Shown: in pieces, positions 1-4,455 of the stretch | Layout: every line of letters starts with the position of its first letter | How positions within the stretch are numbered: the stretch's first letter is position 1 | Virus record (IMG/VR): IMGVR_UViG_2693429642_000021 | Strand: one strand, 5' to 3' | Source: a virus | Lineage: Duplodnaviria; Heunggongvirae; Uroviricota; Caudoviricetes | DNA length: 4,455 bases | Made by a program: the position numbers

Positions 1-3000
1 GGTTCATCAGCGTTTTGGTATTGACAGCATTGATGAACTTTCAATTGAACAAATCCCGCTGGCCGTAGAGTACATCCACAGGGTAGTGCTTGAAGGTGAG
101 TTCATTGGCAAACAAGAGAAGAAAACCAACGAGCTTTCCGCAAAAGAAGCAAACAGCCTTGTATGGCTATGGGATTATGCCAACCGCTCACAGGCATTAT
201 TCCGCGAACTGTATCCGGCGCTAAAGCAAATTCAATCGAACTATTCTGACAGGTGCTACAACTACGGCCATGAGTTCTCGTATGTTATTGGAATGGCGAG
301 AGACGTTTTAATCAATCACACACGAGATGTTGATATTAATGAGCCAGATGGACCAACGAATCTTTCCGCATGGGTAAGGCTTAAGAGCAAAGAGTTGCCG
401 CCTTCACTGCATCACTACTAACAGATTACCAACGAAATGACCCAGCCTCGGCTGGGTTTTTTATCAGGAGTTCTCATGCTCTATAGCAATATATTGGCAC
501 ATGCCCGGCGGTGTGCGCCTGCGGAGTCGTGCGGCTTCGTGGTGAGAACGCCGGAGGGGGAGCGGTATATCCCTTGTGTGAATATTTCCGCAGAGCCGGA
601 GGCGTATTTTCGTATTGCGCCGGAAGACTGGCTGCGGGCAGAGATGCAGGGGGAGATTGTGGCGCTGGTCCACAGTCATCCCGGTGGTCTGCCCTGGCTG
701 AGCGAGGCGGACCGGCGGCTGCAGATAAAGAGTGCCCTGGTGGCTGGTCTGCCGGGGTGACATTCACAAATTCCGCTGTGTGCCGCACCTGACCGGACGG
801 CGCTTTGCGCACGGGGTGACGGACTGTTACACGCTGTTCCGGGATGCTTATCATCTGGCGGGGACTGAAATGCCGGATTTTCATCGCGAGGATGACTGGT
901 GGCGCAACGGCCAGAACCTGTACCTGGACAATATGGAGGAAACGGGCTTTTACCGGGTGCCCCTGTCCTCTGCACAGGCGGGCGATATTCTGCTGTGCTG
1001 CTTTGGTGCTTCGGTACCGAACCATGCCGCCATTTACTGCGGCAACGGTGAGCTGCTTCACCATCTGCCTGAACAACTGAGTAAACGGGAGAGGTATTCC
1101 GAAAAATGGCAACGACGAACGCATTCTGTCTGGCGTCACCGCCACTGGCACGCATCTGCCTTCACGGGGATTTACAACGATTTGGCCGCCGCCTCAGCCT
1201 GTATGTGAACACGGCAGCGGAAGCCATTCGCGCCCTGTCGTTACAGGTGCCCGGATTCCGCCGTCAGATGAACGAAGGCTGGTACCAGATACGTATTGCC
1301 GGTGATGACACGGCACCGGAGGCGGTGTACGCCCGTCTTCACGAACAGCTGGGTGAGGGAACGGTCATCCACATTGTGCCGCGACTGGCCGGAGCCGGAA
1401 AGGGCGGACTGCAGATTGTGCTGGGGGCGGCAGCCATCGTGGGCTCTTTCTTCACGGCCGGTGCCTCGATGGCGTTATGGGGTTCAGCCCTGAGTGCCGG
1501 TGGTTTTTCTGCCACCACGATGCTGTTTTCACTGGGGGCCAGCATGATACTGGGCGGTGTGGCACAGATGCTGGCCCCGAAGGCAAAAACACCGGATTAC
1601 CGCGTAACGGATAACGGCAGACAGAACACGTACTTTTCCTCGCTGGATAGTAACCGGCTCATTTAAACCGTCTGGTCTGTTTCCTCCGGCTCTACAAAAA
1701 TAATGTCCATCATTTTTAATGGACACTATCGTATGAAACACCGGACCTGGATCACTGAAGCTTTACGTCTTCACTTTGAAGAACATTTACCCCGGGTTGT
1801 GGCCGGGCGTCGCCTGGGTGTACCAAAATCAACAGTTTGTAGTATGTTCGTGCGCTTTCGGAGAGCTGGTCTTTCGTGGCCTTTGCCCGCAGGCATGTCG
1901 GAGCAGGAACTTGATGCCTGCCTTTACGGACAATTTTCCACGGTACCAGTCGTACGTCCTGAAAGCACCGTTATATCCGAAGCCCCCGTGGTAAAAAAAC
2001 GTCCCCGGCGGCCCAACTTCCCTTATGAGTTTAAAATCGCCTTAGTGGAGCAGTCACTGCAGCCCGGAGCCTGTGTGGCGCAGATCGCCCGGGAAAACGG
2101 AATCAACGATAACCTGCTCTTCAACTGGCGCCATCAATACCGGAAAGGTGGCCTGCTGCCTTCCGGAAAAAATATGCCGGCACTGCTTCCCGTGACGTTA
2201 ACGCCGGAGCCGGATAATAAAATCCCGGCCCCCGCACAGGAACCAGAGCAGATAAATACACCGTCCGACAGTCTGTGTTGTGAGCTGGTTCTGCCGGCCG
2301 GAACTCTCAGGCTTAAAGGTAAACTGACGCCGGCGTTATTACAGACACTTATCCGCGAAATAAAAGGGAGCAACCACTGATGATATCTCTCCCTGCAGGT
2401 TCGCGTATCTGGCTGGTTGCAGGTATCACCGATATGCGAAATGGCTTTAACGGCCTGGCATCAAAAGTTCAGAACGTCCTGAAGGATGACCCGTTCTCCG
2501 GACACCTGTTCATCTTCCGCGGACGCCGGGGTGACCAGATAAAAGTGTTGTGGGCTGACAGTGACGGACTGTGCCTCTTCACCAAACGCCTGGAGCGGGG
2601 CCGCTTCGTCTGGCCAGTCACCCGTGACGGCAAGGTGCACCTTACTCCGGCTCAGTTATCCATGCTTCTTGAAGGTATCAACTGGAAGCACCCGAAACGA
2701 ACGGAACGCGCTGGAATCCGCATATAACCCGTTGTAAAGTGAGGATATGGACACCTCACTTGCTCATGAGAACGCCCGCCTGCGGGCACTGTTGCAGACG
2801 CAACAGGACACCATCCGCCAGATGGCTGAATACAACCGCCTGCTCTCACAGCGGGTGGCGGCTTATGCTTCCGAAATCAACCGGCTGAAGGCGCTGGTTG
2901 CGAAACTGCAACGTATGCAGTTCGGTAAAAGCTCAGAAAAACTTCGTGCAAAAACCGAACGGCAGATACAGGAAGCACAGGAGCGAATCAGCGCACTTCA

Positions 3001-4455
3001 GGAAGAAATGGCGGAAACGCTGGGTGAGCAATATGACCCGGTACTGCCATCCGCCCTGCGCCAGTCTTCAGCCCGTAAACCGTTACCGGCCTCACTTCCC
3101 CGTGAAACCCGGGTTATCCGGCCGGAAGAGGAATGCTGTCCTGCCTGTGGTGGTGAACTCAGTTCTCTGGGATGTGATGTGTCAGAGCAACTGGAGCTTA
3201 TCAGCAGCGCCTTTAAGGTTATCGAAACACAACGTCCGAAACAGGCCTGTTGCCGGTGCGACCATATCGTGCAGGCACCAGTACCTTCAAAACCCATTGC
3301 ACGCAGTTATACCGGAGCGGGGCTTCTTGCCCATGTTGTCACCGGGAAATATGCAGACCATCTGCCGTTATACCGCCAGTCAGAAATATACCGTCGTCAG
3401 GGAGTGGAGCTGAGCCGTGCCACACTGGGGCGCTGGACAGGTGCTGTTGCTGAACTGCTGGAGCCGCTGTATGACGTCCTGCGCCAGTATGTGCTGATGC
3501 CCGGTAAAGTCCATGCTGATGATATCCCCGTCCCGGTCCAGGAGCCGGGCAGCGGTAAAACCCGGACAGCCCGGCTGTGGGTCTACGTCCGTGATGACCG
3601 TAACGCCGGTTCACAGATGCCCCCGGCGGTCTGGTTCGCGTACAGTCCGGACCGGAAAGGTATCCATCCACAAAATCACCTGGCCGGTTACAGCGGTGTG
3701 CTTCAGGCCGATGCTTACGGTGGTTACCGGGCGTTATACGAATCCGGCAGAATAACGGAAGCCGCGTGTATGGCTCATGCCCGGAGAAAAATCCACGATG
3801 TGCATGCAAGAGCGCCCACCTACATCACCACGGAAGCCCTGCAGCGTATCGGTGAACTGTATGCCATCGAGGCAGAGGTCCGGGGCTGTTCAGCAGAACA
3901 GCGTCTGGCGGCAAGAAAAGCCAGAGCCGCGCCACTGATGCAGTCACTGTATGACTGGATACAGCAACAGATGAAAACACTGTCGCGTCAGTCAGATACG
4001 GCAAAAGCGTTCGCATACCTGCTGAAACAGTGGGATGCACTGAACGTGTACTGCAGTAATGGCTGGGTGGAAATCGACAACAACATCGCAGAGAACGCCT
4101 TACGGGGAGTGGCCGTAGGCCGGAAAAACTGGATGTTCGCGGGTTCCGACAGCGGTGGTGAACATGCGGCGGTGTTGTACTCGCTGATCGGCACATGCCG
4201 TCTGAACAATGTGGAGCCAGAAAAGTGGCTGCGTTACGTCATTGAACATATCCAGGACTGGCCGGCAAACCGGGTACGCGATCTGTTGCCCTGGAAAGTT
4301 GATCTGAGCTCTCAGTAAATATCAATACGGTTCTGACGAGTCGCTTACTCTTTTTTTACAGAATAAATCACAATTTATAATTATGATTTGTGATTTATGC
4401 CTGCCTGTTTTTCAGCATTGTGACAGCATCGGACTCAGGCATCGAAAACTGCACC

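Follow-up and report, generated by a model that had tools for sequence, protein, structure and literature searches.

Why does an insertion sequence (IS) of a family that duplicates 8 bp of its target sit, in the stretch of DNA described here, between two flanks that do not match? The window, by which we mean the whole stretch of 4,455 bp that was analysed (IMG/VR record IMGVR_UViG_2693429642_000021), was found through exact-protein look-ups to be the entire contig CDQY01000733.1 of the fragmented draft assembly GCA_000941535.1. From left to right it carries lambda-like prophage tail genes, the last of them the interrupted tail gene I, then a complete copy of the IS66-family element ISCro1, and then 107 bp of AT-rich DNA. 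ISCro1 was first named in Citrobacter rodentium ICC168 and is widespread in Escherichia coli chromosomes and IncF plasmids. We consider it probable (about 0.62) that the mismatched flanks are an assembler's join of halves of two ordinary ISCro1 insertions, and not the scar of a deletion.

The answer depends on where the element ends, and its features are as follows.

1650-4348, plus strand: ISCro1 (IS66 family), 2,699 bp with three intact genes; 99.7-99.8% identity to annotated ISCro1 copies
1650-1672, plus strand: left terminal inverted repeat, from the inverted-repeat pair and from copies with duplications
4326-4348, plus strand: right terminal inverted repeat, on the same two grounds
1703-2380, plus strand: tnpA, 225 aa (or 215 aa from 1733); Pfam HTH_Tnp_1, called IS66-like accessory protein TnpA in matching records
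2380-2727, plus strand: tnpB, 115 aa; Pfam TnpB_IS66
2747-4318, plus strand: tnpC, DDE transposase of 523 aa; Pfam LZ_Tnp_IS66, zf-IS66, DDE_Tnp_IS66 and DDE_Tnp_IS66_C

The length of ISCro1 (2,699 bp) and its 8-bp duplication (PMC12115866), together with its expansion, have been described (PMC12115866, PMC3072379). The window copy agrees with the reference element in length, in its consecutive and intact tnpA-tnpB-tnpC genes with IS66 DDE domains on the product of tnpC, in its GTAA(C/G)CG... repeats and in overall identity, and it differs in that its TnpC is a rare variant and that the contig lacks the 8-bp duplication. The element begins GTAACCGGCTC... at 1650 and closes ...GAGTCGCTTAC at 4348, the right end reading GTAAGCGACTC when reverse-complemented, and both ends thus have the GTAA(G/C)CG form. 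The terminal repeats are imperfect, beginning GTAACCGG on the left and GTAAGCGA on the other end, and the arms as detected (1649-1671 and 4327-4349) are 74% complementary. We set the termini empirically from 12 ISCro1 copies sampled in finished E. coli records. Perfect 8-bp duplications lie at exactly these termini in 10 of the 12; in an eleventh copy (L008) the repeat is displaced by one extra G, and only a plasmid copy (L001) has none at all. A reading of the window made from sequence alone (the sequence-only reading) had proposed an IS66-family element with these termini, a family habit of 8-bp duplication and the lack of such a duplication here, and all three points hold: the left 8-mer, GCTGGATA (1642-1649), differs from the right one, TCTTTTTT (4349-4356). 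This failure is a property of the contig's junction pair and not of the identity of the element.

The exact TnpC protein was present in 18 contigs of the whole collection. Outside the draft batch to which our assembly belongs, it occurs in IncF plasmid contexts (loci L018-L022), either as traM-SLT...IS...serine-protease autotransporter or as IS-hok-IncFII repA. The copy linked to the autotransporter lacks a target duplication, yet its flanks are identical in several independent assemblies, and this recurrence indicates that it is a real hybrid.

If the element is ordinary, the two flanks must be accounted for, and they come from different kinds of replicon.

1205-1649, plus strand: tail assembly gene I, codons 1-148 of 193, with a GTG start overlapping the stop of tail gene K; Pfam Lambda_tail_I
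1642-1649, no strand: left flanking 8-mer GCTGGATA, which belongs to gene I itself and presumably was the target when the IS entered I, from comparison with L002 and L007
4349-4455, no strand: IncF-type plasmid DNA from a spacer with a parA/parB-like gene pair on one side and a convergent site-specific integrase gene on the other, from genome matches
4349-4356, no strand: right flanking 8-mer TCTTTTTT, native plasmid sequence and presumed target of a second, separate insertion, from comparison with L003

On the left, the PF06805 (Lambda_tail_I) domain was found on the 153/186-aa I product, K lies upstream, and in L002, L009 and L017, relatives with an uninterrupted I, this gene is followed by J; together these points identify the gene as lambda gpI. 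The sequence-only reading was correct that I is truncated, and with 148 of 193 codons remaining the loss is not just of the extreme 3' end; the broken frame extends 17 nt inside the IS, to a stop at 1664-1666. The uninterrupted I of E. coli TOE17 measures 582 nt. Uninterrupted homologues pass through the insertion site as ...tcgctggata|acatgattgcccag..., with L002 and L007 reading tcgctggata|acatgatt. On the right, 1,880 of 1,902 matches in E. coli genomes are on plasmids, always under a site-specific integrase annotation, and the best match (99.1%) is NZ_CP024244.1, a 152-kb plasmid of an O128:H27 strain. The flank is therefore foreign to the tail module and not a continuation of I, as had been supposed, and its original partner proves to be plasmid spacer next to the integrase gene: the plasmid reference L003 is unbroken across the junction point, reading ...gcagtggtc|tctttttttacag. 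The flank is mainly plasmid-borne and lies beside the same integrase gene, as seen in L003 and L001, and its source would on these matches be a plasmid with an IncF-type backbone. Both flanking 8-mers are similar to genuine ISCro1 duplications, GCTGGATA to GCTGAATA and TCTGAATA, and TCTTTTTT to TTTTTTCT and TTTTTTTC, which fits two ordinary insertions.

The evidence that carries our interpretation comes from contigs that exact-protein look-ups retrieved from about ten sister assemblies, all submitted in one batch. The left junction gctggata|GTAACC is shared by at least eight contigs (the window, L004-L006 and L012-L015). From this one junction the IS runs on to three right flanks that are unrelated to each other, namely the plasmid integrase spacer in the window, the type IV pilus island gene pilI in L004 and a prophage terminase gene in L005, and in L006 and L012-L015 the contig ends inside the IS. 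Flanks are exchanged in the other direction as well, given that the terminase flank is paired with gene I in L005 and with a tail-tube gene in L031 and L035, and that a fourth right flank is paired with two different left flanks (L023 and L036). All right flanks in the batch end after 87-172 bp. A target duplication was found in none of the seven IS-spanning batch contigs, versus 10 of the 12 finished E. coli copies (Fisher p = 7e-4), and several sister assemblies hold at least two sets of ISCro1 flanks each (L014 with L031, L015 with L023, L012 with L036). Swapped pairing, short right flanks and the absence of duplications in all seven contigs form the pattern expected of a collapsed 2.7-kb multicopy repeat in a short-read assembly.

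The same contigs (the window, L004-L006, L009, L013 and L016) also switch alleles on either side of a 205-bp block (1023-1227) whose sequence does not differ between distinct prophage K-I alleles. The combinations seen around it are A+I', B+I' and A+intact-I (respectively, Ant and frameshifted K with I', L-K with I', and Ant and frameshifted K with intact I). Two explanations fit this switching, real mosaicism of the prophages and a consensus that mixed repeat copies. L013 has just four allele-B single-nucleotide differences (1016-1022), and L009 and L011, which belong to one assembly, overlap by more than 1 kb.

We propose that one ISCro1 copy would have inserted into the prophage tail gene I at target GCTGGATA and another into an IncF-type plasmid, in the spacer beside its integrase gene, at target TCTTTTTT, each real copy presumably carrying its own duplication. 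With ISCro1 probably multicopy in this genome and the assemblies probably built from short reads, an element of 2.7 kb, longer than such reads or their inserts, would collapse in the assembly graph. The assembler would then output one arbitrary path made of the left flank of the first copy, the IS and the right flank of the second, and the missing duplication would be an assembly product. The partner half-junctions of two such insertions would read CGCTTAC-GCTGGATA-ACATGATTGCC, joining the IS right end to the 3' end of I and J, and GCAGTGGTC-TCTTTTTT-GTAACCGG, joining the left side of the plasmid site to the IS left end. The batch resembles known unphased contigs through collapsed repeats in short-read assemblies in its short unique flanks, interchangeable pairing, redundant overlapping contigs and total lack of duplications; it differs in resting on a comparison of contigs instead of reads or an assembly graph.

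Several observations weigh against this interpretation. The chimera is deduced from contigs and not from reads or an assembly graph, and a single ISCro1-bearing contig was retrieved from this assembly, multicopy status having been seen in the sister assemblies only. The identical contig is recorded in two samples, which is unexpected for a purely random choice of path, although clonal isolates and a deterministic assembler could explain the recurrence. Genuine plasmid-borne copies of ISCro1 that lack a duplication are known (L001; L018/L022). Neither partner half-junction (IS end + GCTGGATAACATG or GTGGTCTCTTTTTT + IS start) turned up in the searched sets; the one foreseen by the sequence-only reading, in which the IS end is followed by gctggata and the 3' end of I, gave no genuine match in the GTDB, IMG/VR and JGI scans or in the protein search.

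The searches gave the following results. None of the 5,426 complete E. coli genomes searched contains either junction of the window, and with the whole window as query PLSDB gave no record that covers the right junction or the hybrid pair. The reciprocal junction (IS right end + GCTGGATA[ACA]) gave a single 20-mer match among GTDB representative genomes, in the Campylobacterota metagenome-assembled contig BNUO01000227.1 (L026, 841-860); this exact match was rejected as chance given that the surrounding sequence is entirely unrelated. The reciprocal junction pattern returned nothing from IMG/VR or the JGI metagenomes, the window's right junction pattern returned nothing from the JGI metagenomes, and the left junction pattern returned only a copy of L004 from IMG/VR. 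A search of 5.8 billion proteins with a synthetic query (an IS-derived prefix joined to the I C-terminus) gave no match covering the prefix. Open reading frames beginning MIAQGN... were considered as products of the reciprocal junction and rejected, since they are I genes with a frameshift (L047, L048) or stand at a contig edge (L046). A literature search on the assembly accessions gave no match.

The contig edge just mentioned belongs to the E. coli DEC8B draft contig AIGG01000036.1 (L046, 1-10), which begins GGATAACATG..., within the GCTGGATA 8-mer, and continues into the 3' end of I, J and lom. A contig break at the window's ISCro1 site may indicate the boundary of a repeat or IS in that strain as well, and we take it as a lead only.

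What else could join these flanks? Recombination between an ISCro1 copy in the prophage I gene and another in the IncF plasmid spacer may really have fused the two replicons, giving a plasmid-chromosome cointegrate or a plasmid-borne prophage fragment with hybrid IS copies whose flanks do not match. We regard such a real join as possible, though on balance unlikely. Flanks from different kinds of replicon, each with an 8-mer like half of a normal insertion, are what it would produce; an experimental study has reported that ISCro1 copies can fuse replicons through homologous recombination (PMC12115866); duplication-less plasmid copies occur in finished and independent assemblies (L001; L018/L022); and the recurrence of the contig in two samples tells mildly in its favour. 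The likeness to known hybrid IS copies, as in high-frequency-recombination (Hfr)-type plasmid-chromosome cointegrates and the ISCro1 plasmid fusion pT28R-F3, lies in one IS standing between two replicons with non-matching 8-mers that resemble half-duplications. The published cases, however, were closed by long reads and polymerase chain reaction, whereas linkage in the window comes from a short draft contig only, and a short-read contig is no proof of linkage across a 2.7-kb repeat. To explain the sister assemblies, many separate recombination events would also be needed, with partners that differ although the backgrounds are nearly identical. The hybrid junctions are absent from the complete genomes, and the whole-window search of PLSDB gave no record that covers them. 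Short reads are unable to separate a real join from an in-silico one. In its specific form, in which ISCro1 truly fused a defective lambdoid prophage to an IncF plasmid of virulence type, giving an integrated plasmid or a plasmid-borne tail-gene fragment, this outcome seems to us improbable.

The sequence-only reading had preferred an insertion into I followed either by an adjacent deletion or by recombination with a second copy, with removal of the distal prophage. Its recombination part stands as a possibility indistinguishable from the in-silico join, and its deletion part does not stand, given that the right flank is plasmid DNA. In the deletion model, an IS in I would have transposed intramolecularly to a nearby target, deleting all DNA from the 3' end of I through J to the right flank; the missing duplication and the absence of the I 3' end and J from the contig are what it predicts. 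Yet the right flank is contiguous in plasmids with its own left side, so that a plasmid would already have to be integrated beside the prophage, and 10 of the 12 finished copies are simple insertions. The supposed loss of the distal prophage is not borne out either: the sister contig L009 carries the same prophage, marked by a frameshift in K, with an intact I (of a different allele) followed by J. We therefore hold adjacent deletion to be very improbable. Because a reciprocal exchange retains all four half-junctions, finding the partner junctions would refute the deletion model only. Prior expectation, finally, would favour a simple insertion whose ends were misplaced or whose duplication has decayed; ten perfect duplications at identical ends, 8-mers that agree at 2 of 8 positions and a flank unrelated to I along its full 107 bp effectively eliminate it. 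We thus return to an unphased path through a collapsed repeat as the most probable source of the junction pair.

The window's other features lie in the phage genes to the left of I and at the far right.

1-421, plus strand: P22-type antirepressor gene, 3' end; Pfam P22_AR_C on the called gene
441-462, plus strand: terminator-like hairpin cccagcc..ggctggg followed by a T run, 3' of the antirepressor gene, read from the sequence
476-1208, plus strand: tail gene K (Prok-JAB + NlpC/P60), a pseudogene in two open reading frames, 476-760 and 732-1208
4363-4398, no strand: near-perfect 36-bp palindrome with 18-nt arms, 89% complementary and without a spacer, which abuts and overlaps the integrase stop codon
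4395-4455, minus strand: plasmid tyrosine recombinase/integrase gene, last 19 codons and stop; the annotated gene starts at 7047 of L003, which corresponds to 4395 of the window

The left 1,647 bp of the window are 98.8% identical to E. coli TOE17. The prophages of TOE17 and Z1323CEC0017 have their genes arranged as L - arc/ant - K - I - J, and related prophages in finished E. coli genomes read L - arc/ant moron - K - I - (sodC) - J - lom, the antirepressor being a moron between tail genes L and K. The window is collinear with this lambda-like tail tip module over Ant-K-I (98.8% and 94.5% identity to the TOE17 and Z1323CEC0017 prophages, respectively) and differs from it in a 5-nt deletion in K, a break of I at codon 148 and the absence of J from the contig. 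The antirepressor with its own terminator hairpin (window 1-470) forms a moron cassette within the tail operon, to which relatives add arc-family and ClpP-like genes. The split of K is due to the 5-nt deletion, which lies near 733 and appears as a gap against TOE17 and against L004-L008. It is also present in the sister contigs L009 and L011-L016, which align there without a gap, and we therefore take it as a property of the lineage, not a read error. Tail assembly in this prophage was already defective, independently of the IS in I.

At the right edge, the C-terminal translation of the integrase on the reverse strand ends ...VQFSMPESDAVTMLKNRQA, followed by the stop codon. The palindrome (ATAAATCACAATTTATAA/TTATGATTTGTGATTTAT) lies 14 bp from the IS end and could be a bidirectional terminator or a recombinase site.

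Two further observations concern where ISCro1 lands. Two loose groups emerge when its duplications in L002, L007, L008 and L038-L045 are compared with the 8-mers of the window, one like (G/T)CTG(A/G)ATA (GCTGAATA, TCTGAATA and the window's GCTGGATA) and one T-rich (TTTTTTCT, TTTTTTTC, TTTTAATT and the window's TCTTTTTT). Lambdoid tail modules, moreover, carry the element repeatedly: within L (L002), within K (L007), in the gap between sodC and J (L008) and beside a truncated J (L039). ISCro1 may have a target preference, the sample being small.

In summary, the element and its 8-bp duplication are already known, as are its insertions in prophages and IncF plasmids and the recombination between its copies, and the mechanisms are ordinary under any reading of this locus, being IS insertion in a decaying prophage with either inter-copy recombination or assembly collapse. 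The lesson is one of method: around a multicopy IS in a short draft contig, an absent duplication is no evidence of deletion or rearrangement, because the IS ends cannot be phased. If the fusion were true, ISCro1 would be reshuffling prophage, island and plasmid DNA fast, with close isolates differing in the right-hand partner of I::ISCro1. A true join would then add a further case of replicon fusion by ISCro1, its interest being local to the study of this strain's plasmids.

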